Of a stretch of DNA of 64,000 bases, positions 5,390-59,721 are shown piece by piece. The stretch is taken from assembly GCA_963770895.1 (NCBI GenBank), contig CAVYRF010000002.1:864001-928000 (forward strand). The letters run 5' to 3'. Every line of letters starts with the position of its first letter. The stretch's first letter is position 1. This stretch comes from an uncultured Acidobacteriota bacterium. Lineage in GTDB: Bacteria > Acidobacteriota > Thermoanaerobaculia > Multivoradales > UBA5704. Both the position numbers and the translations under genes were made by a program. The notes beneath the pieces are model-generated. The model saw only the letters and a list, made by a program, of their open reading frames with translations, was not told the origin of the DNA and ran no database searches.

Positions 5390-6628
<1,239 letters not shown>

Positions 6629-6834
6629 CTCTCCTCCGTTGCACGCCGGGACGGTAGGGCCAGGGAATAGTCTTGATGCTAGGAGCGACTGGAACCCCTG
6701 TCAACTAGCCTCCGCCTGTAGAACAGGGTGCCGGCGCGCGGCTATTCCGCTCACCGCCCGCCGCCGCGACGGTTGACAGCGCCGGGACCGAGGGTCGACC
6801 GGCGCCGCCCGACAGCCACAATGGCTCCGCCGCC

Positions 6835-7530: not shown

Positions 7531-7545
7531 GCTGTTTTCGCTCTC

Positions 7546-9048
7546 CTAAACCGTATCCGGGGCGGCGGTACCCGGCTCGCCGGCGTCGGCTCCATGGGGG
7601 CCATGGCCGCCATGGGCATGGACACCTGCCGCGGCAGCCTCATCCCCGGCCTGACCGGCAGCCGGCAGCTCGCCCAGCAGGTGCCGCGTCGTCTTGTCGC
7701 GCCGCATCTGGTTGCGCAGCGATTCGAGCCTGCCGTCTTCGTCGAGGGCGCGGCGCAAAGCCGGCGTCGTCGTCTGTTGCGCGCGCGCCAGGGTCGCCAG
7801 GGCGCGCTCGAACTCTTCGTCGGTGACCGCCACCCCTTCGGCCGCGGCCACCGCATCCAGCAACAACCGGTCGTGCACGCGCTGCTCGGCCAGCGGGCGG
7901 ATCTGCTGGCGGATCTCCTGCCAGTCGACACCCGCCTGCTCGGCGCGCAGGCCGCGCCGGGTCAGATTGTCGGCGTAGTCGCGAGCCATGTGCTCGATCT
8001 CGTGCTCCACGACGCCCTGCGGCAGCTCCAGCGGATGGCGCTCCCGCAGCTGTTGGAGCAACGTCGCCCGCCGGTGGTCGTTGCGCTCCTGGGTCCGCCC
8101 TTCGCGCAGGCGTTGCACCACCAGGTCGCGCAACGCCGACAGACCACCCAGCTCGGGGTTGACCCGCGCCGCCAGATCGTCGTCGAGAGCCGGCAGCTCA
8201 CGCTGCTTGACCGCGTCCACTTTCACCTTGAAACGCCGGCGACGCGCCGGGGTTGCAACGGCCGCAACGTCGGCCGCGTCCGCGGCGTCCGCGCCGGCGG
8301 CGGGCGCGGCGGGGGCCGTCACCTCTCCGGGCGCGGGCTCGTGCACGAAGGTGGTCTCCTGACCGGCCTCGACGCCGGTGACGGCCAGGGACAGGTCCTC
8401 CCACACGCGCGCATCGCCGACTTCGAACTCGACAGGCTGCGGCGCCGGGGCCGCCGCCTTGGAGTCGGTGGCATCGGCGGAGTCGGTGGCGGTGCCGGCA
8501 GCTGCGGCGCCCGCCGCGTCGTCGGGCAGCTCGGTGATCTGGGTGTGCACCAGGTCGCCACGCGCCGCCGCCCGCGTCACCGGCACCCATTCGCCGAAGC
8601 GCATCCGCAGGTCGTCCAGCGCCTTTTCCACGTCCATCTCCCCCGGCTCGACGTCGGGGTTGGGGATGTTGAAGTCGTGCACGTTGCGCAGCTCGATGCG
8701 CGGCCGCGTTTCGACGGTGGCGACGAAGGTGAGCGGGCCGCCGGATTCGACGTCGCGCACTTCGTCCACTTCGGGCGGCATCAGCGGATCGAGCTCGGCT
8801 TCAGCCTGAGCCTGGCGCCAATAGCGCGGCAGCAACCGATCCACCACTTCGTGCTCGATCTCCTTGGCGAAGCGGCGGCGCACCAGATCCGACGGCACCT
8901 TGCCGCGCCGGAAGCCGGGCACCCGCACGCGCTGCGCGTATTCGCGCACCACCCGCTGGGTCTCCGCTTCGACGGCAGGCGCCGGAACCTCCACCGTGAC
9001 CTGTTTGCGCCACGGCCCTACGTCTTGCACTGCTACCACCACGCTCAT
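7546..9048 (-). CDS. tig: Trigger factor
   Basis: VPGFRRGKVP ribosome-binding signature; tig-clpP-clpX-lon order. Confidence 0.93.
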   Translation of the reverse strand: MSVVVAVQDVGPWRKQVTVEVPAPAVEAETQRVVREYAQRVRVPGFRRGKVPSDLVRRRFAKEIEHEVVDRLLPRYWRQAQAEAELDPLMPPEVDEVRDVESGGPLTFVATVETRPRIELRNVHDFNIPNPDVEPGEMDVEKALDDLRMRFGEWVPVTRAAARGDLVHTQITELPDDAAGAAAAGTATDSADATDSKAAAPAPQPVEFEVGDARVWEDLSLAVTGVEAGQETTFVHEPAPGEVTAPAAPAAGADAADAADVAAVATPARRRRFKVKVDAVKQRELPALDDDLAARVNPELGGLSALRDLVVQRLREGRTQERNDHRRATLLQQLRERHPLELPQGVVEHEIEHMARDYADNLTRRGLRAEQAGVDWQEIRQQIRPLAEQRVHDRLLLDAVAAAEGVAVTDEEFERALATLARAQQTTTPALRRALDEDGRLESLRNQMRRDKTTRHLLGELPAAGQAGDEAAAAGVHAHGGHGPHGADAGEPGTAAPDTV

Positions 9049-43119: not shown

Positions 43120-43987
43120 GACTCTTGACTCCTTCGGTGCCGGGCGGCAGGTGCTTTTCCTGGTAGCCCTGCGGCAGCACGAACCATGCCTCGGGCGGCG
43201 TCGCGGCTTCGAGCCGGGTGACTTCCATGCTGGTGCGGGTCACCGCCGGGCGGCCGTCGTGCTGGCGGCTGGTCGACACGGTGACGGCGCGCAGGGGATA
43301 GCCGGGCACGGCGCCGGCCTGCGCCGCGATGCGGGCGTCCAGGCCGGCGTCGCCGGTCGGCGGCGGCTCGTGGCGCAACCAGACGCCGGCTCCCTGGTCG
43401 TGCAACTTGTCGGTGATCCACAGGTCCTGCTCGACCACCGTACCGCCCGAGGTGGACATCCCCAGCACGTTGACGACGGTCTTGTAGCTGATCCGGAAGC
43501 GGAAGATCCGCGTCGGCAGACCGGCCACGACGCCGCCGTCCGCTTCGGGCAGGCGCGCCACCCTGAGGTCCGAGACGTTCACCTTGAGCAGCGGCCCCAT
43601 GCCGTGCAGCACGCCGCCAACCCGCTCCAGCATCGCCCGCAGGTCCCAGGGGGTGTAGGAGCGCTGGGCGGGGTCGATCAGGTAGAGGGTGCGTCCGGCG
43701 TCACGGCTGACCAGCCAGGTCCCGGCGCGTGCCGCCGGGTTGTCGCTCTTGTGCAGCTCGATGCGCGCCCGCTGCCCCAGCGCCCAGCCCTCGACCTGCA
43801 CCTCGGAGCTGTGCGGCGCGGTGTCTTCGGCGCCGGCGATCGAGGTGCGCGTCACCGCCGTATAGTGAATCCCCGCCTGGGCCGGCAGCGCCACCGCGGC
43901 CAGGCCGAGCAGGACCAGCACCCCCGCCCCGGCGAGCGCCCGCGCCACCTGGCGGCAAGGGCTGTGCAAGAGGCAGCTACCGGACAT
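43112..43987 (-). CDS. Secreted DUF4412-like protein
   Basis: Signal/TM segment, beta-rich body, C-terminal PPEAWFVLPQGY; start uncertain. Confidence 0.65.
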   Translation of the reverse strand: MSGSCLLHSPCRQVARALAGAGVLVLLGLAAVALPAQAGIHYTAVTRTSIAGAEDTAPHSSEVQVEGWALGQRARIELHKSDNPAARAGTWLVSRDAGRTLYLIDPAQRSYTPWDLRAMLERVGGVLHGMGPLLKVNVSDLRVARLPEADGGVVAGLPTRIFRFRISYKTVVNVLGMSTSGGTVVEQDLWITDKLHDQGAGVWLRHEPPPTGDAGLDARIAAQAGAVPGYPLRAVTVSTSRQHDGRPAVTRTSMEVTRLEAATPPEAWFVLPQGYQEKHLPPGTEGVKSHG

Positions 43988-44777
43988 GACGACCGATCAT
44001 CTCGTTCCCGCCGGCGCACCGCAACCCCCGCACCCTTCGCACTCGCCGCACTCGTCGCAGGCGGGGGCCGCCCCGCCGCTGCGGCGGATGACCTTGCCCG
44101 TGCTGGCCGCTGCCGCGCTGCTGCTGGCGCCGGCGCTGCCTGCCGCTGCCCCGCCTGAACCGGCGCCGGCCACGGCCGCCGCCGGCGCCGCCGCCGGTCC
44201 GGAGGCGCCGCCACCCATCCCGCCGCCGGCGGACGCCGCCGATGCGGCGCGCCTGGCAACCGGCGAGGTGCTGCTGTCGTCGCGCCCCTACGGCACCCGC
44301 CAGCTCACCGAGGAGATCGGGCGCGGCCTGATCGACGCCGCTCCGCGGCGCGTCTTCGCCGCGGTGGCCGACTTCGCTCACTATGACGAATGGGTGCCGT
44401 TCGTGAAGAAGTCGGACGCCCACCCCCAGGCCGACGGCTCGGTGCTCTCCTTCCAGTCCCTGGACCTGCCGTTCCCGCTCGGCACGCGCTACTACCGGTT
44501 CCGCGCCAGGACGGCGGTCGAGGAGCGGGCCGGCAGCGAGGCGTGGCGCGTATGGTGGAGCTACGTGCCGGGCAGCGGCAACGTCGCGGACCACCACGGC
44601 TGGTGGGTCCTGGTGCCGGCGCCGGGCGGCAAGACACTGGGCACCTGCCTGCTGTTCACCGACCCCGGCGGCAGCACCCCGGCCTGGGCCCTGCACCGCG
44701 GCACCGCCGAGACCATGCCTTACGTCTTCAGCGCCCTGCGCCAGCAGATCCACCGCTCGCGCTACGACCGGCAGTGA
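43986..44777 (+). CDS. SRPBCC/START-fold protein, probably exported
   Basis: IDAAPRRVFAAVADFAHYDEWVP, DPGGSTPAW; hydrophobic N-terminal segment; start uncertain. Confidence 0.75.
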   Translation: MTTDHLVPAGAPQPPHPSHSPHSSQAGAAPPLRRMTLPVLAAAALLLAPALPAAAPPEPAPATAAAGAAAGPEAPPPIPPPADAADAARLATGEVLLSSRPYGTRQLTEEIGRGLIDAAPRRVFAAVADFAHYDEWVPFVKKSDAHPQADGSVLSFQSLDLPFPLGTRYYRFRARTAVEERAGSEAWRVWWSYVPGSGNVADHHGWWVLVPAPGGKTLGTCLLFTDPGGSTPAWALHRGTAETMPYVFSALRQQIHRSRYDRQ

Positions 44778-44859
44778 GGGTGGTACACTTCTCCCGGTCC
44801 TCCCTAAGCATCTGTAGAGTCGATACGTCGAGCGTACGGCAGGACTGAGGAAAGCGTGT

Positions 44860-46053
44860 ATGGAAAATGAAGCCCTGGCTCTCGACGCCCATCTCGGCGC
44901 CGAGCTGCACCGCCGCTCGTCGGAGCTCACCCGGCTGTGGCTGGACTGCCTGCAAAAGCGGCTCGACGTCAAGCCGCGCCGGATCTTCCCGTCCGAGACG
45001 CTGCTCAATCACATCCCCGAGGTACTGAAGGCCATCTCCGACTATCTCGGGGCCAGCGGCAACGCCGGCGCCGAAGAGCTGGTGCGCACCGAGCTTGCCA
45101 AGCTGGCGCACCTGCGGCGCGAGCAGGGCTACGACGTCGACGAGCTGCTTGCCGAGTTCGAGATCCTGGGCGACATCCTGTACGGCGCCTTGCGCGAAGA
45201 GGCGCTGGCCTTCGACCGCAAGGTGCCCGCCGAATATGCGATCGCGGTGGCCGAAAGGCTCTACCGGGCGCTCATGGCGATCACCAAGATCACCACCAAC
45301 ACCTTCAAGCAGGAGAGCGTGCGCGATCTGCGCGAGCGAGCGCGGCTGCTGGGCGGGTTCGGGCGCGACCTGGCGCACGAGCTGCGCAACCGGCTGGCCG
45401 CCGCCGAAGCGTCCCTCCACATCCTGGCGCACGACGCCGCACCGGTCGGCGAGCGCGCCCAGCGCGCGCTCGCCTCGCTCGGCAATGCCCTGCGCCGCAT
45501 CAACGGCGTCGCCGACGACGTGCACGCGCTGGCGATCGCCCAGGGCAGCGAAGAGTCGGCGCAGGGACGGCGCCTGGCGCTGCGCACGCTGGTGGAGGAC
45601 ACCGTGGCCGAGCTGGCCGGCCTGGCGCGCGAAAAGGACGTGACGCTCGAAGTGGTGGAGCCGCTGCCCGACGTGCAGGTGGACGCCACCCGCGTGGAGC
45701 TGATCCTGATCAACCTGCTCGGCAACGCGATCAAGTACTCCGATGAAACCAAGAGCCGGCGCTGGACGCGCATCTTCGTCACCCCCGAAGCGCCGACGGA
45801 CAACGGCAGCGGCCAATGGCGCGTCGGCGTCGCCGACAACGGCGTCGGCATCGCCGAGGACATGAAGGGGCTGGTCTTCGAACAGTTCGTGCGCGCCCAT
45901 CCCGACATCGCCGACGGCACCGGCCTGGGGCTGGCCATCGCCCGCTCCGCCGTCGAGCAGCTGCGCGGCCGCATCTGGGTAGAGACGGAACCCGGCACGG
46001 GCAGCACCTTCTACTTCACCGTCCTCGATCCGCCGTCCGCGGCGACGACGTAG
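44860..46053 (+). CDS. Soluble sensor histidine kinase with RsbRD-N-like globin-type input
   Basis: HLRREQGYDVDELLAEF, H-box AHELRN, NLLGNAIKY, DNGVGI, GTGLGL. Confidence 0.9.
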   Translation: MENEALALDAHLGAELHRRSSELTRLWLDCLQKRLDVKPRRIFPSETLLNHIPEVLKAISDYLGASGNAGAEELVRTELAKLAHLRREQGYDVDELLAEFEILGDILYGALREEALAFDRKVPAEYAIAVAERLYRALMAITKITTNTFKQESVRDLRERARLLGGFGRDLAHELRNRLAAAEASLHILAHDAAPVGERAQRALASLGNALRRINGVADDVHALAIAQGSEESAQGRRLALRTLVEDTVAELAGLAREKDVTLEVVEPLPDVQVDATRVELILINLLGNAIKYSDETKSRRWTRIFVTPEAPTDNGSGQWRVGVADNGVGIAEDMKGLVFEQFVRAHPDIADGTGLGLAIARSAVEQLRGRIWVETEPGTGSTFYFTVLDPPSAATT

Positions 46054-46082
46054 GCGTCGTCGCCGGGCGGCCGGCGGCCGGT

Positions 46083-47972
<1,890 letters not shown>

Positions 47973-48262
47973 CGACTGCTCCTCCTTGGGGAACCTCCTG
48001 CCATCCTGCGGGGGCCGCCGCCAATCTCAGGGGTCTCAGGGAGCCTCCACTCTTCGCCGGCCGTCGTGCAGGCCGGAGCAGCGGGCATGCGACCCTACGG
48101 TATCTCAGGTGCCGCGGGGAGGCCGGGCTGGGACGCCGGCTCCCACGACCCCCGATCTGGATCGCCTGCCCGGCCGTCGCGCCGCAGCCCAGGGGAGCCG
48201 GCAGGAGCCCGCGGCGCCGGCTTGATAAGATACCGGGCCGCGCCCGCCTGCGCACCCAAACC

Positions 48263-48922
48263 ATGTTCGAGGACCTGACGCGACCGCGAGACACGGCGCG
48301 GCGCCGGTTGCTGCTGGCCGGTTCCGCCCTGCTGCACGCGGCAGCCGTCGCCCTGCTGCTGCGCTCCGGCGCCGGAGGGTCCGCCGCGACCGAGCGCCAG
48401 ATCGACGTCCTGCTGTTCCCGCCGGCACCACGCCCGCACGCCACCGGCAGCGCGCCCGCCGACGCCGCCGCGGACCCGGCGCGGACGGCGCCCGCCGAGC
48501 AGCAGGTGGTGCAGCCCACCGTGGCGCCCGATCCGCAGCCGGCCGCGCCGTCGCCGCCCGCCGATGCCGCAACCGGCGCGCCGGCATCGCCCAATCCCGC
48601 CGGCGCGGAGCCGACGAGCGGCGCCGATCTGCCCGCCGACGCGGGCGGCGACGTGGCACGCCCCCAGCTCATCGCCGCCAGCCGCACCCTGCCCGACTAC
48701 CCCGTCGCGGCGCAGCAGGCCGGCCTTGAAGGGGTCGTCATCCTGAAGACCATCATCGACGAGCGCGGCAAGGTCGGCGACATCCAGGTGCTGCACGGCC
48801 TCGGCATGGGCCTCGACGAAGCCGCCGTCGCCGCCGTCCGCCGCTGGCGCTTCCAGCCTGCCACCCGCAACGGCAAGCCGGTCAAAGTCTTCTACGTCCT
48901 GTCCGTGTACTTCCACCTGTGA
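48263..48922 (+). CDS. TonB family energy transducer
   Basis: TM with SALLH, Pro/Ala linker, PDYP..A...GLEG.V...AV..WRFQPA..NG.PV. Confidence 0.88.
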   Translation: MFEDLTRPRDTARRRLLLAGSALLHAAAVALLLRSGAGGSAATERQIDVLLFPPAPRPHATGSAPADAAADPARTAPAEQQVVQPTVAPDPQPAAPSPPADAATGAPASPNPAGAEPTSGADLPADAGGDVARPQLIAASRTLPDYPVAAQQAGLEGVVILKTIIDERGKVGDIQVLHGLGMGLDEAAVAAVRRWRFQPATRNGKPVKVFYVLSVYFHL

Positions 48923-48924
48923 CT

Positions 48925-48961
48925 CCTGGGCGGTGGTGTTCTCACTCGTCGTTGGCGGTGC
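48925..48961 (+). repeat. Left arm of the 37-bp inverted repeat flanking the DUF262-hipA cassette
   Basis: cctgggcggtggtgttctcactcgtcgttggcggtgc matches the reverse complement of 51979..52015 at 33/37. Confidence 0.8.
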
Positions 48962-49033
48962 GGGAATGCGGTGCGGGAATGACGATCCGTACCGGGCCTT
49001 GTCTCAATGGCAAGAGGAGGACACCTGGCGCCC

Positions 49034-50224
49034 TTAGAGCTGCAGACCGCTCAGGTGGTGACGCAGGTGTTCCTTCGCTTCACGGTGCATGGGTAGATCC
49101 GCTTCGAGGCGAGCCCAAGCAGCCCTGATCCTTGCTGCCATTTCACCGATTTCGCTGGCCATACGCTGCTCATCAAAGTCACATTTGCGGGCCAGCCGCC
49201 TGAACGCTTCCCTGTCAACCCGCCGAAAATCCTTGTTGCCGTCGAGGTTCAACGCCAATGTATCCTCAGGATAGTAGGCCCGCGTGAACACAAGGTCATA
49301 TGCAGGCGAAAGCGCGGCGGTCCGGTCATCGGGATAGGTCAAGGACCAATTCTTGTGATGAGCGTCGCCGTTTCCCGACAACACCATGAACGCCAAGCGC
49401 CGCGCATACTCCAGAAAAGCATTGTCACCCGCCACCGCCCTGACGACCCTGCCGATCGTCTCGTAGTTGTACTTGATGTACTTTTGGCCTGGGTAGAGCT
49501 TGAGCACCTGTGCGAAATCTTCCTGATGGATCCGTCGCCGATCCTGACGATCGTACCGGCGCACCAGGAGGGCCTGCTGTTCTTCCAGCTGCCCGACTTC
49601 GCGTGGCAGCCCCTCCACGCCGGCGATCGGGATGAGCTCGACATCCGGAACTTCAATCCCCGATTCCTGAGCCCAGGTTAAGATCGAAAACTCGTTCGCT
49701 GGTACCAGAGAATGACGGCTGTCGGGAAGCTTCAAGATCCAATCGCCGCCTCGGCCGGAAACGGGTAGGACCACGCCCTTTCCTTTGCGCAACGCGGAGA
49801 ACTTCAACTGCACCCCGGCAAGAGAGAACTTAAGCGGTGAATCGCCGTTCAGATAGGAGGCGGAAGGGGGCTCATCGCCGGTCTCCGGCATCTCGCCCGG
49901 AGCGGCTTCGACAACCACGGCGCCAGGAAGGTCGCCCCCAAGGTAGGCCAGCAAGGAGAGGTCGTCAGGTTCCTGGATCTCGGCATGACGGACGATCAGG
50001 TCGTGCAGGGCGCCTTCGGGCAGCAGGTTGGCGAAGAAGGGCGGCAGGCGGCCTGCCGTCTTGTACGGCCGGCGTGGATCGTCCAGGAAGCTCTGGCCCA
50101 GCACGGGCCTGCGGCTCATGTCCAGGTAGCTGCTGGCAAAACGGAACTCGAAGACATTGCCGGCCAGGCGGCCGAGGCTGCCAACCGTCCGGTCACCCAG
50201 TTTCACCGCAAGATGGTCCATCAT
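49034..50224 (-). CDS. hipA: HipA-family Ser/Thr kinase toxin (N-terminal couple domain + kinase)
   Basis: LPPFFANLLPEG, FSLAGVQLK, WILK, RYDR, IHQEDFAQ, GNGDAHHKNWS, LSPAYD; ATG overlaps the upstream TGA. Confidence 0.92.
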   Translation of the reverse strand: MMDHLAVKLGDRTVGSLGRLAGNVFEFRFASSYLDMSRRPVLGQSFLDDPRRPYKTAGRLPPFFANLLPEGALHDLIVRHAEIQEPDDLSLLAYLGGDLPGAVVVEAAPGEMPETGDEPPSASYLNGDSPLKFSLAGVQLKFSALRKGKGVVLPVSGRGGDWILKLPDSRHSLVPANEFSILTWAQESGIEVPDVELIPIAGVEGLPREVGQLEEQQALLVRRYDRQDRRRIHQEDFAQVLKLYPGQKYIKYNYETIGRVVRAVAGDNAFLEYARRLAFMVLSGNGDAHHKNWSLTYPDDRTAALSPAYDLVFTRAYYPEDTLALNLDGNKDFRRVDREAFRRLARKCDFDEQRMASEIGEMAARIRAAWARLEADLPMHREAKEHLRHHLSGLQL

Positions 50225-51816
50225 TCGGCAACCACCAATGTGTCGATCGCGGGCCGATCGCGATCGCTCGGATCCCATTCGGCGCGGTCGTCCAGGAAAC
50301 GCTGGACATGCACTCTCAGGTCCAGCTCGCGGTGCCGCAGGAACCTGGCAAGGTCGCCCTGATGCAGCGCCCGCGCCGCGGCGGATGAGATCAGATGCGA
50401 CCGCAGAATGTCCTCATCCTCGCACTGCACGAGCTGCCGGCGAAGCGACGTCTTACCGTGTCTCGCCTGCAGAATGCGGTTGGCCAGACCCTCCGCTTCC
50501 GGGATGCTGTTAGTCGACGACAGGCGCCGCGCCGGACCTTCCGGCTGTTCGCAGAGCCGAGCGACGTCGAGGCTATCTCCCGTCTGGATGTCGCGAGGGC
50601 GCAGCGATCCGAGTGCGATCAGCTGCAGCTTGGTGCGGGCGAACCGGAAGCGATAGGGCCGCAGCGCCGGATCCTCGGTAGGGCGCTGGCCTACCTCCGC
50701 CAGAAGGCTGCGCACCGACGCGACCTCGTCGCCCCCCTTGACAGCATCAAGGGTCCGCCGGAGCGACACCGTGTCACCGCGGTGGGTGCCGCTTACGGCT
50801 CCCCGCCAGAGCCACCGAGTGAGCAGCTGGCGGGTTCGATACGCCGGTTCGGGATGCTCGTGGAAGAAGAGCGCCAGGGTGACCAGCGGCAGCCGATAGG
50901 GCATCAAGGAGATGTGCGGAAATTGTGCCTCTTTGACGAAGACAATCGCATTGCGCAGCGCCGCAGCCGTATCGGCCAGCGCTGCCGGTACGTCGACCTC
51001 CGGAATCTGCCGGAAGCTGCGCGCCTGGTCTTTGCGCCGCACGGCGAGCAGGGCGCGCAGAATAAGCTTGCTTTCGATGCGGCCGAATTGCAGCTGCAGG
51101 AGCAGATCGGCAATGCCATGCAAGCTCGACGGCTCCTGCGAGCTTTGGGCGCCAAACAGCGCGTCGAAGACTTCCTCCCCCTTCAGCTGTTTGCCGCTTG
51201 TGTTCATGCGATCGAAAATGTTGCGTAGCACCTTCTCGCCGGCCTCGACCACATAGGACGTCGTTTGATACTCGCGCAGGCGTTTACCCAGTTCGAAAGC
51301 GGTCAACTGATTGGGCCCCGTCAGCTGATTGGCGCTGGCCCAGGCCATCAGGCGGACTGCATCGTGCACCTCGCTCAAGGGGATCCAGAGCGGAGCCGGT
51401 TTTTGCGTCGCCGTTCCGTACGCGAATGCCTTGTCGGCCAGATTGAATCGGATCGTGCGGCCGGCCGGATTGGATCCCGCACCGGCGAGCAGGACCGAAG
51501 CGAGGGTGGTGACCCGCTGCTGTCCGTCGACGATCCACAGAGCATCCGTGCGCCCCTCGGCATCGACGGCAAAGTCGCCAAAGTAACTTCGTGCAGCTTC
51601 TGCCGGATGCTTCCAGAAGAGCAGGGTGCCGATCGGGAAGCCGCGATAGATACTGTCGAAGAGCGCGATGCGATCCTGATCGCCCCAGTTTAGAGCTCTT
51701 TGAAATTCAGGGATGCGAATCCGCCCCGCTCCGATTTCGCTTAGCAGATCCTCGACCGAGATCGCACGGGCTTCCGGACGCCGGTCCAGGCGAGCGGTGC
51801 TTTCGAATACGGACAT
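50221..51816 (-). CDS. DUF262 (ParB/Srx-like, GmrS-type) domain protein
   Basis: IPEFQR..W, FPIGTLLFW, IVDGQQR, IFDRMNTSG..L; start set at ATG 51816. Confidence 0.88.
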   Translation of the reverse strand: MSVFESTARLDRRPEARAISVEDLLSEIGAGRIRIPEFQRALNWGDQDRIALFDSIYRGFPIGTLLFWKHPAEAARSYFGDFAVDAEGRTDALWIVDGQQRVTTLASVLLAGAGSNPAGRTIRFNLADKAFAYGTATQKPAPLWIPLSEVHDAVRLMAWASANQLTGPNQLTAFELGKRLREYQTTSYVVEAGEKVLRNIFDRMNTSGKQLKGEEVFDALFGAQSSQEPSSLHGIADLLLQLQFGRIESKLILRALLAVRRKDQARSFRQIPEVDVPAALADTAAALRNAIVFVKEAQFPHISLMPYRLPLVTLALFFHEHPEPAYRTRQLLTRWLWRGAVSGTHRGDTVSLRRTLDAVKGGDEVASVRSLLAEVGQRPTEDPALRPYRFRFARTKLQLIALGSLRPRDIQTGDSLDVARLCEQPEGPARRLSSTNSIPEAEGLANRILQARHGKTSLRRQLVQCEDEDILRSHLISSAAARALHQGDLARFLRHRELDLRVHVQRFLDDRAEWDPSDRDRPAIDTLVVAE

Positions 51817-51978
51817 AAGCAAGAGTGGGCGACCACAGCAGGACGCCCCCCATAGGGCATGCCGGCCTCGGCCTGGAGTGGCGAAGGGTCGGCCTGCCTG
51901 CGGCGAGCCTATCATTGACGGCGGTAACCTGGCGGCAGACCGCGTGCCGCGCGCGGATCCGCCTACGGCGCCCAGCCA

Positions 51979-52015
51979 GCACCACCAACGACCAGTGAGG
52001 ACACCACCGCCCGGG
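51979..52015 (-). repeat. Right arm of the 37-bp inverted repeat flanking the cassette
   Basis: gcaccaccaacgaccagtgaggacaccaccgcccggg; pairs with 48925..48961. Confidence 0.8.
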
Positions 52016-52142
52016 CAGGCGGTTTGACGGCCGGAGCGGCACTCCGTAAGCTGCAAAGCGGCTGGGGACGGGCCGCGGCGTGGCACGAAGTCCGCAGGCA
52101 GGGGAGCAGCGGCAAGGGGCGGCAAGGGAAGGAGGGTCGGCA

Positions 52143-53528
52143 TTGGCGGCAGAGCAGACCAGGTATGACGCGTTGGTGGCGGGGGGCGGACCGGCCGGGT
52201 CGACGGCGGCGCTGGTGATGGCGCGGGCGGGGATGCGGGTGCGGCTGTGCGAGCGGGCGCGGTTCCCGCGCTTTCACATCGGCGAATCGTTCCTGCCGGC
52301 CAACCTCAACCTGATCCGCGAGCTGGGCCTGGCGGACCGCTTGAGCCGCGTGCCGCAGACGGACAAGCAGGGCGCGGAATTCGTGTTCGCGGACGGCAGG
52401 CAGGGGCAGCTGTTCTCGTTCTCCATCAGCCTGGTGGAAAACCTGGTGCAGGCGTTCAACCTGGAGCGCGCGCCCTTCGACGCGATGCTGCTCGCGGCGG
52501 CGCGCGACGCCGGGGCCGAGGTGAGCGAAGACTGCGGCATCCGCCGCATCCTGCGCCTCGAAGAGGGCGACGTCGAGGTGGAGACGGATGCGGGACAGCG
52601 GCTGAGCGCCGGCGTCCTGGTGGACGCCAGCGGCCAGGGGACGCTGGTCGGCCGCCATCTGGGGCTGCGGCGGGTGATGGCGGACCACCGCAAGGTCGCC
52701 TTCTTCGGTCACTTCACCGGGGTCGAGCGGCGCGGCGGCGTCGAGGGCGGCTACCCGACCATCGTGATGTGCGACGAAGGGTGGTTCTGGATCATCCCGA
52801 TCGACGATCGGCGCGACAGCATCGGCCTGGTGATGGACGTCGACGCGGCGCGCCGGGCGGGTGTGCCCCACGACCAGATGCTGGCCTGGGGGATCGCCCG
52901 CTGTCCCCTGGTGCGCCGCCGTACGGCCACCGCAAGCGGGGCCGACGGCAACCTGGTGTGCGCCGATTTCAGCTATCGCTGCGAGCCGTTCGCCGGGCCG
53001 GGTTACTTTCTGGCGGGCGACGCGGCGACGTTCCTGGACCCGATCTTTTCGACCGGCGTCTGCATGGCGATGATGAGCGCCGCCGAGGCGGCGCGGGGCG
53101 CCATCGCCCTCGACCGGCGGACGGCGCCCGCGGCGCGGGTGCGGCGGCGGTACCACCGCTTTGTCGACCGCAGCACGGCGCCCTTCTTCGGCATCGTGCG
53201 CGGCTACTACGACCATTCGTTCCGCGAGCTGTTCGTCAACGGCACCGGGCCGCTGCAGATCCATCGGGCGGTGATCGCCGTCCTGGCCGGCGGCGTCTTC
53301 CCGCGCCCGGTATGGCGCCTGCGCTGGCGCCTCGCCCTGTTCCACTTCCTGCGCCGCGTCAACCGCCATCTGCCGCTGGTGCCGCGCCGCCAACGCTTCT
53401 CGCTGTTCGGCGCCGACGCCGAAAGCGACGCCGCGGCGCTGCGGCCGGAAGCCTTCGGCCCCGCGGTAGAGCAGCCCCAGGCGTCGCCGGTCGCGTTGGC
53501 GGCGGAAGCGGTCGCGCCGCCGCGATGA
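52143..53528 (+). CDS. FAD-dependent oxidoreductase/halogenase (aryl-polyene-cluster type)
   Basis: GGGPAG, PRFHIGESF, WFWIIP (WxWxIP), GDAATFLDPIFSTG; TTG start after RBS aaggagg. Confidence 0.85.
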   Translation: MAAEQTRYDALVAGGGPAGSTAALVMARAGMRVRLCERARFPRFHIGESFLPANLNLIRELGLADRLSRVPQTDKQGAEFVFADGRQGQLFSFSISLVENLVQAFNLERAPFDAMLLAAARDAGAEVSEDCGIRRILRLEEGDVEVETDAGQRLSAGVLVDASGQGTLVGRHLGLRRVMADHRKVAFFGHFTGVERRGGVEGGYPTIVMCDEGWFWIIPIDDRRDSIGLVMDVDAARRAGVPHDQMLAWGIARCPLVRRRTATASGADGNLVCADFSYRCEPFAGPGYFLAGDAATFLDPIFSTGVCMAMMSAAEAARGAIALDRRTAPAARVRRRYHRFVDRSTAPFFGIVRGYYDHSFRELFVNGTGPLQIHRAVIAVLAGGVFPRPVWRLRWRLALFHFLRRVNRHLPLVPRRQRFSLFGADAESDAAALRPEAFGPAVEQPQASPVALAAEAVAPPR

Positions 53529-54562
53529 GCGCCCACCCGGGCGCCGGCTTCCGCCTGCTGGGCCAGCTCCGCCCATCACGCCCTCCAGCTGCGCCGTCGG
53601 CGCCGGCGGGTGCCCCCCCTGCCGGCACGCCGCCGGTGGCGGAGGTGGAAGTCCAGTCCGACAGCCCTCTGTTTGCCGGCCACTTTCCTCTCCAGCCGGT
53701 GCTTCCCGGCATCGCTCACCTGGCGCTCCTGGAATGGGTGCTGGCGCAGCTGGCCGCAGCTGGCGACCCCGCGGCCGGCGGCGCAGCGGCCGCGCCCGGA
53801 AACCGCACGGCGATCCGCCAGGTGCGCCAGGTCCGCTGGCGCCGCCCGGTGGCGCCGGGCGACCGGTTACAGGTCTGGGTGGAATCCGCCGGCGAGGACG
53901 CGGCCTGGCGCTTCGAGCTGCGGCGGGATACCCAGGTCGTGAGTCACGGGCTGATCTCCTGTGCGGACGCCCCATCCTCGGGGCCGCCGGCAGCCGGCCT
54001 GCTCGATGGAGCGCCGGAGCCGGCGGGCGGCGGGTTTCCGCACCCTGCCCTCCTGCTGCCGCACGGCCCCGCGGCGCAGCTGCTGGCGCGGGTGGTCCGC
54101 GTCAGCCCGGCGGCGGCAGTCGGAGAGGGAGGAGCGGGCGTGGGGGTCGAGGCGGCAGGAATCGTCTGCCACGCCGTCATCCCCGACGACCACCCGCTGG
54201 CCGCCGGCGGCACGGCGCCCGGCGTTCTGGCGCTTGAGATCGCCGCCCAGGCGGCCGCGGCCTGGATGTCGCTGCGGCAGCGGCGCGCTGATGGCGGCAG
54301 TGGCGGCGATGGCGGGAGTGGCGCCATGGGCGCCATGGGCGGCAACGGTGGTGAGCCGCGCGTCGGTTACCTGGTCGCCGCCCGCGACGTGCTGCTGGCG
54401 CCGCGGCTGGCGGCGGGCACGCCGCTGCGGATCGCCGTCACCGCTGCCGGCGGCACGGCGCAGCTGGGAATCTACCGGCTGGCGCTGGACGTCGCCGGCG
54501 CGGCGGCACCGTCCGGCGGGCTCGCCACGGGCGCGATCAGCATCTTCGTCGACGGGCGCTGA
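53525..54562 (+). CDS. Fused double hot-dog dehydratase (ApeI-like + ApeP/FabZ-like)
   Basis: FAGHFPLQPVLPGI, RPVAPGD, LLPHGP, LEIAAQ, RVGYLV; ATGA overlap with the upstream gene. Confidence 0.8.
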   Translation: MSAHPGAGFRLLGQLRPSRPPAAPSAPAGAPPAGTPPVAEVEVQSDSPLFAGHFPLQPVLPGIAHLALLEWVLAQLAAAGDPAAGGAAAAPGNRTAIRQVRQVRWRRPVAPGDRLQVWVESAGEDAAWRFELRRDTQVVSHGLISCADAPSSGPPAAGLLDGAPEPAGGGFPHPALLLPHGPAAQLLARVVRVSPAAAVGEGGAGVGVEAAGIVCHAVIPDDHPLAAGGTAPGVLALEIAAQAAAAWMSLRQRRADGGSGGDGGSGAMGAMGGNGGEPRVGYLVAARDVLLAPRLAAGTPLRIAVTAAGGTAQLGIYRLALDVAGAAAPSGGLATGAISIFVDGR

Positions 54563-54570
54563 CGCTCAGC

Positions 54571-55674
54571 TCAGGGCCACAGGCGGCGGAAGCAGAACCA
54601 TTGATGGGGCTGGCGGGCGATGGCGCGCTCCAACTCGGCGGCGAAGCGGCGCAGGGCTTGGTCGAGGTCGGCCCGGCGGTCGGCCGACGGCGGCACCGCG
54701 ATGGGCGGGCGCAGCTCGCAGCGGTAGCGGCGGCGGCCCTCGCGAAAGACGAACACCGGCACCATCGGCACGCCGGCGGCGCGGGCCAGCGCTGCCGGCC
54801 CGACCGGCAGCGGAAAGGGGCGCCCGAACAGACTGAGGGTGGCGGATTGGCCGCCGGCGCGCGGGCGGTCGCCCTGCAGCGCCACGATCTCGCCGCGACG
54901 CAGGGCGTCGAGCAGCGTCAGGCCCAGCTGCGGGTCCTCGGCGAAATGGGTGACGTAGAGGCCGCCGCCGGTCTGTTTCTTCATCAGGCCGGAGATGTAT
55001 TCCTGCGCTTTCGGATCGGTCTCCGCTTCGCGCACCACGTGGACCAGCCGCGATTCGGCGGTCGCCGGCAGCATCGAACCCACCTCCCAGCTGCCGATGT
55101 GGGCGGTCACCATCAGGCACCCCTGGCCGCTGCGCGCCAGCTCGTTCCAGCGCTCCAGGCCTTCGGCGTACAGGTGAAACGGGCGGCGCGTGACCAGCCG
55201 TTCGTAGCGCTCGGTCAGGCACCAGGCGAAGCTCCACAGGGTCTTCCAGATCCGCGCCTGCCGGCGCGGCCAGCCGCAGGGCCCCAGCACGGCTTCCAGG
55301 TTGTCGCCCACCGCGGTGCGGATGTTGAGCAGCGTGACGAAGAAAAAACTGGTGAAGGTGGCGATGAACGCCCCCATCAGCGCCCCTGGGAAGAACGCCA
55401 CGCCCCAGCCGTGGAACCGGTACCAGAACACCCCGGTGACGTGGAACGGCCCGAGCAGCCGGCGCACCCACCCGGTTTCGGGAGCGTGCGGCGGCGGCGC
55501 GGCGGGCATCGCCGGAGCGGGCGCCACCGGCGCCGCCCCTCCCGGCATCGCCACGCCCGACGCCGCTGCCGGCGACGCCATCGCCGGTGACACCAGGCCG
55601 GCGGTGGCGCCGACGGCGACCCTGGCCGGCGGTTTGGGCGGCGACAGGGGACGCGACAGGCGGTTGCGCATCAT
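54571..55674 (-). CDS. Lysophospholipid/lipid A lauroyl-type acyltransferase
   Basis: TAHIGSWE, ALQGDR, LFG..FP..GP..LA, P.QWF. Confidence 0.88.
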   Translation of the reverse strand: MMRNRLSRPLSPPKPPARVAVGATAGLVSPAMASPAAASGVAMPGGAAPVAPAPAMPAAPPPHAPETGWVRRLLGPFHVTGVFWYRFHGWGVAFFPGALMGAFIATFTSFFFVTLLNIRTAVGDNLEAVLGPCGWPRRQARIWKTLWSFAWCLTERYERLVTRRPFHLYAEGLERWNELARSGQGCLMVTAHIGSWEVGSMLPATAESRLVHVVREAETDPKAQEYISGLMKKQTGGGLYVTHFAEDPQLGLTLLDALRRGEIVALQGDRPRAGGQSATLSLFGRPFPLPVGPAALARAAGVPMVPVFVFREGRRRYRCELRPPIAVPPSADRRADLDQALRRFAAELERAIARQPHQWFCFRRLWP

Positions 55675-58214
55675 GGCTGCCCCGCCGCCGCCGCACCGGG
55701 CGGCGGCCCCTTGACCAGCCCCAGCGCCTCGATGGCCGGCAGCACCAGGAAGGTGGCCGCCAGGCAGGCGGTGATGCCGGCGGAAACCAGGATGCCGGCG
55801 GCGGCCAGGCTGGGCACGCGCGAAGTGCACAGGCTGCCGAAGCCGACGGCGGTGGTGAAGGTGGCCATCAGCATCGCCAGGCCGACGTCCTCCACCGTGC
55901 CGGCCAGGCCGCGGTGCGGATGCAGCCGCCGCCAGTGCACGGCGTGGGCGCCCAGGTCGATGCCGGTGCCCAGCAGCAGCGGCACGGTGAAGATGGCCAG
56001 CAGGTCGAGCGGCCGGCCGCAGGCGCTCCAGATGCCGAACGTCCACAGGCACCCCAGGGTGAGCGGCAAGAAGGCCAGCAGCGCCGAGGCGACGCGGCCG
56101 CGAAACGACACCAGCACGACGATCGCCACCAGCGCCAGCGCCAGGCCGCTCGACCGCAGCAGATCGGCCAGCGCCAGCTGCTTGAGCTCGGCGCCCACCC
56201 GCGGCGCGGAGGCCAGCGCGGCGCCCGGCGCCACCCGCCCCAGCTCGGCCGCGAGCGTCGCGGGCACCCCGGCCCCCGGCGTCGCGCCCTGCGGCAGGCG
56301 CACGTGCACCGCCACCGCCGCCCCGCCCGGCGGCACGCCGTAGACGCCGGGTCCGCTGCGCACCAGCTCGCGCATCCAGCTCGGCCAGGCGTCCGGCGCC
56401 GGCGCCCCGCTGTCCTCGCCGCGCGCGAAGCCGCGCAGGGTGGCGAGCGCCGGCGCGAACGGCGCGGCGCTGAAGCCGGCGGCAAGCAGCTCGCGCTGCA
56501 GGTCGTCCGCGGCACGTCCCAGCGGCAGCGCCCGCAGCGCCGCCAGGCGCTCCGCGCGCCGCCGCCCCACCACCAGCCAGTCCGCCGGCGTGGTGATCTC
56601 CGCCCGCGGCCCCAGGCGCCGGCGCAGCAGCGCGGTCGCCGCCGCGGCGCGGTCCAGCGCCTGGTCCAGGTCGCGCCCCGTCACCACCACCGACAGGGTG
56701 TCCAGGCCCAAGCCGAAGCTGTTCACCAGCAGCTCCTCCGCCGCGGCCGACGGCGGATCGGCCGGCCGCAGCACGCGCAGGTCGGTGGACAGGCTGGCGC
56801 GCGACAGGCCCCAGGCGCCGAACGCCGACAGGCCCAGCGCCACCGCCACCACCACCCGCGGCCAGCGGGTTGCCAACCCCACCAGCGCGCGCAGCCCCGG
56901 CTGCCCCCAGCGGGCCCAGGCGCGCGGCCGCGCCGGCGGCCGCACCGCCGCGCCGGGGGCGCTCGCCGCCAGCGCGGCGCTCAGGGTGACGGTGGCGAGC
57001 AGCGTCGCCAGCACCCCCAAGGCCAGCACCAGGCCGATCTCGCGCAGCGGCCGGAAGTGGGCGGTTGCCAGCGCCCCCAGGCCGGCGGCGGTCGCCAGCG
57101 CCGCGGTCAGCACGCCGGGGCCGGTGGCGCGGTAGGCGCCCGCCAGCGCCTGCTCGACGCCGGCGCCGGCCAGACGCAGGTCGCGGTAATGGACGCCGCC
57201 GTGAATCCCGTAGTCGACCCCCATGCCGACCAGGGCGGCGGCGAAGCCGATGCCGACCACGGTCAGCAGCGGCATCGTCAATCCCACCGCGCCGGCCGCC
57301 CACAGCAGGCCGGCGAGGACCGCGACCAGGATGGCGGCCGGCAGCAGCAGCCCTTCGAAGCCGGCCAGCAGCACCAGCGCCACGCCGCCCACCGTCGACG
57401 TCGCGGTGCGCGTCAGGTCGCTGCGCAGGATCCCTTCGTCCTGCGCCGCGTACAGCGGTCCACCCACCGCCTTGAAGTCGAGCGGCACCGCCACCTTGGC
57501 GCGCACCCGCGCGTAGGCCTGGTCGAGGGCGGCCTGCAGGGCGCGGCCGCCGGCGGGGTCGATCTCGGCGCGCGCCGGCGTCAGGATCACCATCGCCACG
57601 TCGCCGCGGCGCGACAGGAAGGCGCCCGAAATGGGGTCCATCGGCACGGCGTTGGCCAGCTGGCCCAGCAACCCTTCGGACATGCCGAGCGGATCGCTGG
57701 CAAAGAGCTCCGCCAGGGCGCCGCCGCCGGGGCTGGCCAGCGTCTGGCGCATCAGCGCCACGCGCCGCTTGAGCGCCGCCGGGTCCAGGCGCGCGGCCAG
57801 GTCGCCGCTGCCCGCCGCGGCCAGCAGCGGCATGCGCGGCGCGATGTAGCGGTAGAAGAAGCGCTCGTCCTCGTCGGTGCGGCCGCTCCTGGCGTCCGCC
57901 ACCTCGCGGTTGGCGCGCATCTCGTCGGCCAGCGCCGCCGCGGCGTCCTCGAGCGGCCCCGGATCGTCCAGCGGCAAGCCCCGCGAGCGCACCAGCACGA
58001 AGACCTTTTCGAAGCCGCCGAAGGTGCGCAGGAACACCCGGTAGTCGTCGGCGGCCGGCGCCCCGCTGGGCAGCAGCGTCGCCAGATCGGCGTTGATGCG
58101 GATGCGCGCCGCCGGGGCCAGCGCCGCCAGGCAGGCCGCCAGGCAGACCGCCAGCACCGTGCGCGGCCGCCGCGCCACGAGCGACGCCAGCGCGGCGCCC
58201 GCGCCGCCGCTCAC
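55671..58214 (-). CDS. MMPL/RND family transporter
   Basis: Two TM bundles with GMGVDYGIH and GTGIDLG; GTG overlaps the fabG stop. Confidence 0.88.
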   Translation of the reverse strand: MSGGAGAALASLVARRPRTVLAVCLAACLAALAPAARIRINADLATLLPSGAPAADDYRVFLRTFGGFEKVFVLVRSRGLPLDDPGPLEDAAAALADEMRANREVADARSGRTDEDERFFYRYIAPRMPLLAAAGSGDLAARLDPAALKRRVALMRQTLASPGGGALAELFASDPLGMSEGLLGQLANAVPMDPISGAFLSRRGDVAMVILTPARAEIDPAGGRALQAALDQAYARVRAKVAVPLDFKAVGGPLYAAQDEGILRSDLTRTATSTVGGVALVLLAGFEGLLLPAAILVAVLAGLLWAAGAVGLTMPLLTVVGIGFAAALVGMGVDYGIHGGVHYRDLRLAGAGVEQALAGAYRATGPGVLTAALATAAGLGALATAHFRPLREIGLVLALGVLATLLATVTLSAALAASAPGAAVRPPARPRAWARWGQPGLRALVGLATRWPRVVVAVALGLSAFGAWGLSRASLSTDLRVLRPADPPSAAAEELLVNSFGLGLDTLSVVVTGRDLDQALDRAAAATALLRRRLGPRAEITTPADWLVVGRRRAERLAALRALPLGRAADDLQRELLAAGFSAAPFAPALATLRGFARGEDSGAPAPDAWPSWMRELVRSGPGVYGVPPGGAAVAVHVRLPQGATPGAGVPATLAAELGRVAPGAALASAPRVGAELKQLALADLLRSSGLALALVAIVVLVSFRGRVASALLAFLPLTLGCLWTFGIWSACGRPLDLLAIFTVPLLLGTGIDLGAHAVHWRRLHPHRGLAGTVEDVGLAMLMATFTTAVGFGSLCTSRVPSLAAAGILVSAGITACLAATFLVLPAIEALGLVKGPPPGAAAAGQP

Positions 58215-58948
58215 GCCGAGGCTCCGGCGTCCACCACCAGCGTCTGGCCGGTGATGGCGGCTGCCCGGTCCGACAGCAGGAACAGCACCGCCTGCGCCAC
58301 CGCGCCGGTCGAGGTGCCGCCGGCCAGCGACTCGCCGGCGCGCAGCGCGGTCACCGCGGCGGCCGGCACGCCGGCGGTCAGGTCGGTCGCCACAAAACCC
58401 GGCACCACGGCGTTGACGCGCACCTGGCGCTTGCCCACCTCCCGCGCCAGGGCGCGGGTCAGGCCCAGCATGCCGGCCTTGGCCGCGGCATAGGCGGCCT
58501 GCCCGGCGACGCCGTGCAGCGCCGACAGCGACGCCACGTTGACCACCGCACCGCGCCGGCGCACCAGCATGCCGCGCAGCACCGCGCGGCAGCAGCGGAA
58601 GGTGCCGCCCAGGTTGGCGTCCACCACGGCATCCCAATCTTCGTCGCTCATCATCGCCAGCAGCGCTTCGCGCCGCTCGCCGGCGTTGTTGACCAGCCCT
58701 TCGATCGGGCCCAGCGCCGCCTCCACCTCGGCCACCAGCTCGTCGGGCCGGTCGCGGTCGCGCAGGTCGAGCTGGAAGGCGCGGGCGTGGCCGCCGCTCG
58801 CCTGCTCGAGATGCTCCGCCGCCTGCCGCTGCGTGCGCCAGGTGAACGCCACCGCCGGCGCGGCGCCGGCGGGCGCCGCCGCCACCAGCGCTTCCACCAC
58901 CGCGCGGCCGATACCGCGGCTGCCGCCGGTTACCAGGATCGTGCCCAT
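58211..58948 (-). CDS. 3-oxoacyl-ACP reductase (FabG-like ketoreductase)
   Basis: VTGGSRGIG, NNAG, YAAAK, VNAVVPG. Confidence 0.92.
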   Translation of the reverse strand: MGTILVTGGSRGIGRAVVEALVAAAPAGAAPAVAFTWRTQRQAAEHLEQASGGHARAFQLDLRDRDRPDELVAEVEAALGPIEGLVNNAGERREALLAMMSDEDWDAVVDANLGGTFRCCRAVLRGMLVRRRGAVVNVASLSALHGVAGQAAYAAAKAGMLGLTRALAREVGKRQVRVNAVVPGFVATDLTAGVPAAAVTALRAGESLAGGTSTGAVAQAVLFLLSDRAAAITGQTLVVDAGASA

Positions 58949-59721
58949 CAGCGCACCTGCCAGCGGGCGCGCAGCACCGCGCCGGCGATCCGCAGGCTGT
59001 CCACCATCGGCCGGTAGTGGCTGGTGGTGCGCCCGTCGGCGAAACCGAGATGGATGGGTACCGAGGCGATACGGAACCCGCGCCGCGCCGCCCGCACCAC
59101 GACGGCGCTTTCGGCCTCGAAGCGCGCCTCGGAGAAGCCGACGGCAGCGATGAGCTCGCGCCGATACAGGCGGAAACCGGTCTGCACGTCGGACAGCCGC
59201 CGCCCGGCGGCAAAGGAGATCGCCGACGACGAGATGCGGTTGGCAGCCCGCCGCACGCTGCTCATGCCGGCAAACAGGTGATCGCGGATGCCCAGGACCA
59301 GGTCGGCTTCGCCGGCCAGCGCCAGCAGCTTGGGCACCTCTTCCGGCAGGTGCTGGCCGTCCGCGTCCAGGGTCACGACCGCGGTACAGCCGCGCCCGAA
59401 CAGGTCGTCGAAGGCGGCCGCCAGCGCCCTGCCCTTGCCCTGGTTGCACGGCAGCGAGATGACGCGCGCACCGGCCTGGCGCGCCGCATCGGCGGTGCCG
59501 TCGCTCGACCCGTCGTCGATCACCAGCACGTCGGGCAGCAGGCGCAGCATCCCCGCGACCACCGCCCCCACCGAAGGCGCGGCCTGGTACGCCGGGATCA
59601 CTGCGGCGATGCGCTCTGGCAGCGGACCGTCCATGGCAGGCGAGGGAGTCGCAACTCGAGGCATCATCGTATCGGCTTCGGCGGGCCCGCGGCCAGCGTC
59701 GCTGCGGCGATCGTCGCTCAC
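58948..59721 (-). CDS. Glycosyltransferase family 2
   Basis: VIPAY, IDDGSSDGT, GKG, DADGQH, DVQTGFR. Confidence 0.92.
   Translation of the reverse strand: MSDDRRSDAGRGPAEADTMMPRVATPSPAMDGPLPERIAAVIPAYQAAPSVGAVVAGMLRLLPDVLVIDDGSSDGTADAARQAGARVISLPCNQGKGRALAAAFDDLFGRGCTAVVTLDADGQHLPEEVPKLLALAGEADLVLGIRDHLFAGMSSVRRAANRISSSAISFAAGRRLSDVQTGFRLYRRELIAAVGFSEARFEAESAVVVRAARRGFRIASVPIHLGFADGRTTSHYRPMVDSLRIAGAVLRARWQVR

Follow-up and report, generated by a model that had tools for sequence, protein, structure and literature searches.

Genomic Organization of the DUF262-HipA Locus

The window analyzed here is a 64,000-nt stretch of the genome of an uncultured Acidobacteriota bacterium (class Thermoanaerobaculia; assembly GCA_963770895.1, contig CAVYRF010000002.1, positions 864,001 to 928,000), and its minus strand carries two adjoining genes, at window positions 49034 to 51816, which encode a DUF262 protein similar to GmrSD and BrxU and a HipA-family Ser/Thr kinase. 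The pair forms a conserved operon with translational coupling and no HipB alongside. The whole of the analysis is based on sequence, models, and predictions, and the features of the locus are the following:

50221..51816, minus strand: DUF262 / GmrSD-BrxU-like partner gene (P0002), 531 amino acids (aa), from translation, Pfam, hhalign, and the AlphaFold2 model
49034..50224, minus strand: full-length HipA-family Ser/Thr kinase gene (P0001), 396 aa, from translation, Pfam, and Protein Data Bank (PDB) matches
50221..50224, minus strand: ATGA stop/start overlap of P0002 and P0001, from the sequence; translational coupling
50224..50268, minus strand: C-terminal tail of P0002, residues 517-531, SDRDRPAIDTLVVAE, predicted HipA-docking peptide, from the complex prediction
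51514..51528, minus strand: DGQQR motif of the P0002 DUF262 NTPase-like domain, coordinates verified
51697..51711, minus strand: PEFQR motif of the P0002 DUF262 domain, with R34, P36, and Q39 invariant; aligns to BrxU
49802..49828, minus strand: HipA Gly-rich loop FSLAGVQLK, with autophosphorylation-type Ser134 and Lys141; aligns to HipT MSIAGYQPK
49349..49375, minus strand: HipA catalytic motif GNGDAHHKN (Asp287); aligns to HipT GNNDMHLRN
49295..49306, minus strand: HipA Mg-binding motif PAYD (Asp310), with P307, Y309, and D310 invariant
48750..52000, no strand: low-GC island with only the two genes inside, GC 0.58-0.68 in 500-nt windows

On the minus strand the junction reads GAATGATGG, with the DUF262 stop codon TGA at 50223-50221 and the HipA start codon ATG at 50224-50222, which confirms the ATGA overlap proposed in an earlier sequence-only reading of the locus. 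That reading had also described the pair as richer in AT than its flanks, as borne out by a GC content of 0.626 for the pair compared with 0.742 for the flanks and 0.707 for the whole window, and the motifs that it named in the kinase (FSLAGVQLK, GNGDAHHKN, and PAYD) and in the partner (DGQQR) all lie at verified coordinates. The island is bounded by a convergent TonB_C gene and a divergent gene for a halogenase-like FAD enzyme. The non-coding gaps on either side had been put at about 160 nt upstream and 70 nt downstream and have to be corrected to 263 nt, up to the GTG at 52080, and 111 nt, down to the stop of the convergent TonB_C gene at 48922. None of the small open reading frames (ORFs) in these two gaps had a Pfam match, and a terminator scan at the pair gave nothing useful.

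Characteristics of the Kinase and of Its DUF262 Partner

The kinase matched two Pfam families well above their cut-offs, HipA_C (6.8e-49; 166.8 bits, cut-off 30.5) and, at residues 5-105, Couple_hipA (1.9e-20; 73.7 bits, cut-off 22.5). In the PDB, it matched HipT (7ab4, 3.7e-14) as well as E. coli HipA (3tpd, 2.7e-13), and HipS aligned to its N-terminal part. Across 60 DUF262-linked HipAs, residues K141, K165, N285, D287, H289, K291, N292, P307, Y309, and D310 are invariant and S134 is at least 90% conserved. Judging from the invariance of the catalytic residues in these 60 sequences, the DUF262-linked HipAs are active kinases under selection.

From its N-terminus, the partner consists of a ParB/Srx-type NTPase-like domain, a helical middle part, a DUF1524-like C-terminal domain that is degenerate, and a tail. 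Pfam detects GmrSD_N (DUF262) at residues 21-221 (91 bits), and the only part with sequence matches among solved structures is the N-terminal domain, which matches BrxU (7p9k, 5.5e-16) and, weakly, SspE. An hhalign comparison of the family with eight GmrSD/BrxU-like proteins, about 600 aa long and with the nuclease motif HHLFP...NQIAN...N, showed homology from end to end (probability 99.9, E 1.3e-32, 481 columns). The AlphaFold2 model of the partner, with a predicted local distance difference test score (pLDDT) of 92.7 and a predicted template modelling score (pTM) of 0.85, could be aligned over residues 14-516 with BrxU 7p9k_A by VIA-align (Z 16.8, root-mean-square deviation 14.1, 460 residues aligned), and Foldseek gave an E-value of 1.4e-12 for the same comparison. 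The next structural matches were SspE, the phosphorothioate sensor DndI, and ParB-type CTPases, the N-domain resembling the ParB/KorB/Noc CTP-switch fold at a Z of about 6.

Nine positions of the N-domain (R34, P36, Q39, W44, D97, G98, Q99, Q100, and R101) are invariant among 60 paired relatives, and DGQQR is present in 138 of the 141 full-length representatives. At both columns of the GmrSD catalytic histidines, His is not among the top five residues across the 60 members; the Asn of 'IAN' is kept in 48/60, and the stretch with the second Asn is deleted in all 60. The motif [DE]xHHxxP was found in the last 160 residues of none of the 141 full-length representatives, and Pfam detected no DUF1524 (PF07510) in 36 members. 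Because the catalytic His-His is lost, the second-Asn stretch is deleted, and [DE]xHHxxP is absent, the sequences identify the partner as a nuclease-dead GmrSD-type protein that retains a putative NTPase-like switch. A search of the ESM Atlas with the C-terminal part returned unnamed clusters and a weak GmrSD_C lead at 0.89. Separately, weak matches were observed to the O-methyltransferase 'Dimerisation' (winged-helix) family in 4/36 partners (best 2.8e-5) and to Antitox_RHH in 2/36 (0.0055); these hints possibly reflect a DNA-binding element in the helical middle or the C-terminal part.

Conservation and Coupling of the Pair

A metagenome scan with an alignment of 36 DUF262 relatives yielded 80 loci, ten of which could not be judged, with 151 nt or less after the DUF262 match. 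HipA lies directly downstream on the same strand in 68 of the 70 testable loci, so that the pair, which the sequence-only reading had known from one locus, is conserved elsewhere. One of the two exceptions (L079) meets the contig end about 650 nt downstream. The other (L089) is a solo DUF262 gene at 3920-5680 whose ORF closes with a remnant from the Gly-rich loop of HipA, RFSLAGSQLRLS, and is followed by an AlaS-like gene (6058-8850); this remnant and the gene after it suggest a decayed toxin locus, in which the kinase would have been deleted and the partner kept. Among the 67 readable junctions, a 4-nt stop/start overlap occurs in 29 and an exact abutment in 7, and most of the others range from -26 to +4 nt. 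Pairwise identities of the DUF262 and HipA proteins correlate over 60 pairs (r = 0.79; maximum 0.17 in 999 permutations), and therefore the two genes travel as a unit.

A second, divergent pair resides on another contig of the same genome (C1 of G000; L004 5761-8636, minus strand), encoding proteins of 543 aa and 415 aa with a 4-nt overlap; its DUF262 and HipA proteins are 36% and 44% identical, respectively, to those of the window, and the corresponding values for a pair in an Actinocrinis metagenome-assembled genome are 31% and 38%. A single-sequence scan of the genome contigs returned one locus only. Full-length relatives of the partner amount to 654 proteins at E <= 1e-10 among 7999 scored candidates, and to 529 at E <= 1e-30 among 1.84 billion cluster representatives (50% identity clusters). 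Named relatives come from Thermoanaerobaculia, Haliangium, Sorangium, Archangium, Azohydromonas, Thiobacillus, Azospirillum, Niveispirillum, and Xanthomonadales, and the DUF262-HipA family as a whole is spread over Acidobacteriota, Myxococcota, Pseudomonadota, and Actinomycetota. Two Azospirillum plasmids carry the pair under the annotations 'DUF262 domain-containing protein' and 'type II toxin-antitoxin system HipA family toxin'. In a sample of 401 genomes of the phylum, the pair was found in the window's own genome only.

No conserved third gene was found within 1.5 kb on either side, as clustering of 630 upstream and 563 downstream ORFs gave only clusters from near-identical loci. A fused DUF262-HipA protein was also considered and rejected: none of 21 longer HipA homologues (703-811 aa) contained PF03235, which is weak evidence of absence. 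These homologues (P0123-P0143) are 37-45% identical to the window kinase, and about 300 additional residues in them are without a Pfam match; P0124 has this extension at the C-terminus, where it is not DUF262 and holds a second LPEGA-like piece reminiscent of HipS-type domains.

Absence of an Adjacent HipB and Relationship to hipBA Loci

The sequence-only reading had found no place for a HipB beside the pair, and this observation extends from the window to the related loci. Pfam identified no helix-turn-helix (HTH) family among 141 ORFs ending within 200 nt upstream of the pair (67 loci), and none above threshold among 150 ORFs whose start is at most 300 nt downstream (56 loci), where a single marginal HTH_31 match was seen. 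Thus, no HipB/HTH gene was found adjoining any pair, and no search was made for a HipB gene at other places in the genome. Nor did the same ORF scans reveal a separate HipS ORF beside the pairs. As a control, the same procedure was applied to 29 other HipA loci from the phylum sample, where it detected an Xre-type HTH ORF in 17/29 and a separate HipS-type ORF in 5/29; one of the latter five (L219) comes from an unpublished genome (G049), and no conclusion rests on it.

When the 401 phylum genomes were searched with a profile of the DUF262-linked HipAs, the best matches outside the window's own genome scored 432-469 bits, compared with 513-517 bits for its own two copies. A HipB HTH gene lies directly upstream in four of the six best outside HipAs (L202, L204, L205, and L206). 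The other HipAs of this hipBA-type sister subclade, L201 1408-2709 and L203 1378-2718, have no HTH ORF among the scanned candidates, and their partner may be short or unusual. A quick maximum-likelihood tree was built from 90 HipAs, 61 of them DUF262-linked and 29 others, including 58 of the 59 metagenome loci in which both ORFs are complete (L105, a near-copy of L104, was left out). It contains a clade of 67 with a Shimodaira-Hasegawa-like approximate likelihood-ratio (SH-aLRT) support of 99, comprising all 61 DUF262-linked HipAs and one subclade of six hipBA-type kinases, which would lie within the DUF262-linked clade or next to it. The partner may have been exchanged only once. Since the nearest HipA relatives are ordinary hipBA loci, with hipB in the position of the DUF262 gene, the DUF262 protein appears to have replaced HipB, in agreement with the antitoxin position assigned to it in the sequence-only reading.

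Predicted Contact between the Partner Tail and HipA

The complex modelling proposed together with that reading predicts direct binding of the two proteins. With paired alignments of 60 rows each as input, three runs gave interaction scores (ipSAE) of 0.81, 0.81, and 0.82, compared with 0.00 for the best of three controls; ipSAE is the model's own confidence, and since our own alignments were used, its calibration, in which the prediction mark was reached by 58/80 solved complexes and 2/110 mismatched pairs, holds roughly. The pLDDT of the partner was 80 or more, and at least 52% of contacts were common to the runs. The predicted interface comprises partner residues 510 and 517-531 in addition to 325-327, and on HipA residues 37-52 of N-subdomain 1 together with 240-266, 299-303, 326-329, and 347-348 of the kinase core. 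The prediction thus places the partner tail, at high confidence, between N-subdomain 1 of HipA and its kinase core. The C-terminus of HipB has been reported to reach the cleft between the same two elements (PMC10627512), so that the P0002 tail would make the same kind of contact, in its case as a prediction only.

The tail lies past the end of the GmrSD homology and is of the type A-E-W-x(3-5)-D-R-P-S-[IL]-x-x-L followed by acidic residues. A regular expression for the motif core matched 47/60 paired partners, 34/36 partners of the first alignment, and 102/141 full-length representatives; it was composed after viewing the tails, and its frequency within the family is therefore partly by construction. 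Outside the family, it matched none of eight GmrSD-like proteins and none of five PDC-M55C-like proteins, and among internal windows it matched 9/983. Several HipB tails resemble the partner tail by eye, such as ...RRPTLEELMSEE and ...EDTPLYQLDD.

Genomic Context and Mobility

The genes around the pair in the window are of a lipid/polyketide type, encoding a polyketide cyclase, a histidine kinase, an acyl-AMP ligase, the TonB_C protein, the halogenase-like FAD enzyme, a FabA-like protein, an acyltransferase, and an MMPL protein. Elsewhere, the neighbors vary and include aconitase, DinB, glyoxalase, cyclophilin, TatA, an integrase, a PIN protein, and Uma2; as they differ between loci, the cassette is taken to be self-contained. 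Several contexts are those of mobile elements. The second pair of the same genome adjoins a two-part IS630-like transposase (L004 4661-5721), an integrase adjoins the pair in L045, and one of the two Azospirillum plasmids is conjugative, with the pair placed beside a recombinase and type IV secretion system (T4SS) genes.

Some further observations concern the insertion sites. At 43986-59213 of the window, the cassette interrupts an apparent lipid or aryl-polyene-type cluster, which includes a FabA-like dehydratase, a lipid A-type acyltransferase, and an MMPL exporter. Synteny with a genome of the same family is limited to the right-hand part (halogenase-like, FabA-like, and acyltransferase genes). 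Orthologues of the halogenase-like gene on the right flank are present in 27/30 other genomes of the order, and in the nine orthologue loci examined for an empty-site comparison, the TonB_C and acyl-AMP ligase genes were not found beside it. In L038, aconitase C-terminal fragments lie on both sides of the pair (3234-3872 and 6944-7300, both on the minus strand), as if it had been inserted in an aconitase gene, or next to one, with target duplication.

Comparison with Known Systems

The pair resembles HipBA of E. coli K-12 and relatives in having a full-length kinase with N-subdomain 1 and intact Gly-rich, catalytic, and Mg-binding motifs, and a translationally coupled partner gene immediately upstream, with the partner C-terminus predicted in the same cleft. 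It differs in that no HTH HipB is adjacent, the 531-aa partner is GmrSD/BrxU-like and has no detectable HTH family, and no operator-like inverted repeat was seen upstream. In HipBST, too, a HipA-family kinase is reported to be neutralized by a protein that is not the HTH regulator (PMC10627512), as would be the case for the pair. However, HipT lacks N-subdomain 1, which HipS supplies, whereas the window kinase is full length and has no adjacent HipS or HipB gene.

The type IV restriction and phosphorothioate-sensing enzymes GmrSD, BrxU, and SspE share with the partner their full-length architecture and fold, and the DGQQR and FQR NTPase motifs are kept in it. They act as single-protein nucleases, whereas P0002 is paired with a kinase toxin, lacks two parts of the His-Me finger nuclease, its catalytic His-His and its second Asn, and has gained a tail of about 15 residues. 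A further two-gene system, HipAD/DS-6, is reportedly due to Brenes and Laub in 2025. It consists of a HipA-family kinase and a DUF3037/DUF1829 protein and is reported to give kinase-dependent phage protection to E. coli (PMC13092281). Both systems thus combine a HipA-family kinase with a non-HipB partner that is predicted to bind the kinase, but the partner families are unrelated, and Pfam found no DUF3037 or DUF1829 in P0002 and 36 relatives.

Among the PADLOC profiles, P0002 matched PDC-M55C over its whole length (1.9e-59, 199.7 bits), and the window kinase gave only a faint match to PDC-M03A. PDC-M55 is made up of an ABC/OLD-type ATPase (A), an unknown component (B), and a DUF262 protein (C), and the likeness lies in a DUF262 protein without an active DUF1524 nuclease and with a separate effector. 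At the window pair, however, there is no A or B and the downstream gene is that for HipA, and the tail motif is missing from PDC-M55C-like proteins. True PDC-M55C genes in the phylum, more distant homologues of the partner, score 385-440 bits and follow PDC-M55B in three loci, two of which also have PDC-M55A. Since these homologues outscore P0002 and follow A/B genes, P0002 is placed by its sequence as a sister subfamily of PDC-M55C with a different companion. Two PDC-M55C-type DUF262 genes (L195 6455-8599, minus strand, and L198 6585-8438, plus strand; 416-432 bits) have no PDC-M55A/B neighbors, and the 'C' component of PDC-M55 therefore also occurs alone or with other partners. Menshen (NsnABC) and ptuXYZ are related three-gene DUF262 systems (PMC11980606); unlike in Menshen, no ATPase gene adjoins P0002 and no third gene is conserved, and its match to the NsnA profile is weak (6.8e-14).

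The pair also matched no system already named. No DUF262-HipA system was found in PADLOC v2, which gives only the PDC-M55 C component, and the main text of the Hip classification of Gerdes 2021 (PMC8262856) has no description of such a pair, the supplementary tables of that work and DefensePredictor being places where such loci might be listed. A full-text literature search produced none among the matches listed, mostly judged by title or the start of the abstract; HipA was mentioned together with DUF262 or GmrSD only in the ptuXYZ paper, unrelated to HipA pairing, and no paper on PDC-M55 was found. The pair thus appears to be a previously undescribed variant of HipA toxin modules with alternative partners, and a role in phage defence is putative.

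Proposed Mechanism and Alternative Interpretations

The reading that we favor, with somewhat better than even confidence, is that of a mobile two-gene toxin/guardian operon, in which an active HipA is held by a nuclease-dead GmrSD/BrxU-type protein that has replaced HipB and is freed on a cue. In resting cells, the partner would bind and silence HipA through its tail, as proposed for the HipB C-terminus, and its ParB-like NTP- and DNA-binding body would be the switch for release. The cue would most plausibly be foreign or modified DNA, or a change in nucleotides, during phage infection, or else loss of the element and decay of the partner. Freed HipA would then phosphorylate an aminoacyl-tRNA synthetase or a similar translation factor and stop growth, leading to abortive infection or addiction; reported substrates that offer an analogy are GltX for E. 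coli HipA and TrpS for HipT (Gerdes 2021, PMC8262856).

A role in phage defence is plausible because the scaffold derives from enzymes of defence, the sister subfamily is a component of a defence candidate, and HipAD/DS-6 provides a precedent. A more specific proposal, which can be put forward only tentatively, is that the type IV restriction scaffold serves as a pure sensor, whose NTP-gated ParB-like domain would perceive modified or foreign DNA or a nucleotide signal and free the tail-held HipA, shutting off translation. If so, sensing of DNA modification would be wired directly to translation shut-off, as in abortive infection, and DUF262 proteins, including those of PDC-M55, Menshen, and ptuXYZ, would constitute a general exchangeable sensor module for different effectors.

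Several observations weigh against the favored interpretation. The window locus lies outside any defence island, and the neighbors in other loci are mostly housekeeping genes, as seen in passing without a formal enrichment test. The pair was not matched in the phage collection, and viral contigs contained only distant DUF262 relatives of 23-27% identity. Scans upstream of the pair found neither a promoter-like site nor an operator-like inverted repeat. The tail expression, framed on the tails themselves, covers the family incompletely (47/60 and 102/141) and matches 3/13 HipB C-termini, so that few sequences stand behind the likeness of the tail to HipB. The binding score expresses the confidence of the model in its own output, and the base of the clade of 67 is unresolved in what was a quick tree search.

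The strongest alternative, which we nevertheless regard as rather doubtful, is a plain addiction module acting by post-segregational killing, where the DUF262 protein would be a large labile antitoxin that stabilizes plasmids or genomic islands and phage sensing would play no part. The two Azospirillum plasmids, with recombinase and T4SS genes beside the pair on the conjugative one, would be natural settings for such a module, as would the IS630-like transposase next to the second copy and the integrase in L045, and these plasmid and transposase contexts fit it as well as they fit defence. Horizontal transfer is suggested by the low GC of the island, most of HipA is gone from L089 with the partner kept, as in decaying toxin-antitoxin loci, and the predicted direct binding fits equally well. 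However, DGQQR and PxFQR are invariant in a family that numbers hundreds of clusters (529 representatives at E <= 1e-30), and such invariance speaks for an enzymatic or sensing activity beyond that of a mere plug, and the scaffold comes from type IV restriction and defence proteins, with the sister subfamily in a candidate defence system.

It is improbable that the roles are reversed, with the DUF262 protein as a DNA-directed effector or regulator, for instance a ParB/KorB-like NTP-gated clamp silencing foreign DNA, and HipA as a regulatory kinase that would switch it through phosphorylation and would be no toxin. The resemblance to the CTP-switch fold, the conserved NTPase motifs, and the predicted contact would suit such an arrangement, but the partner has lost its nuclease catalytic residues, HipA keeps every toxin-type catalytic residue and has hipBA toxins as its nearest relatives, and the predicted tail-in-cleft contact looks like that of an antitoxin and not like a substrate in the active site. 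Chance neighborhood or mis-annotation of two unrelated abutting genes deserves practically no credence, being refuted by the 68/70 adjacency across several phyla, the conserved stop/start overlap, and the co-inheritance of the two genes.

HipA kinases are classic persistence toxins, and the controlling partners described for them to date, HipB, HipS, and a few others, are small. A HipA gated by a dead restriction enzyme of about 530 residues, as in the favored toxin/guardian operon, would add a further way of controlling these kinases. The last 15 or so residues of the partner offer a concrete and testable binding element, and the partner itself would be an example from nature of how a nuclease can be exapted as a sensor. 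Cultured carriers exist, Azospirillum sp. B510 among them, with the pair on the Azospirillum plasmids, and it is thus accessible to bench work. If the role in phage defence is true, the pair would represent a second HipA-based immune system beside HipAD, one that links DNA sensing to translation arrest.

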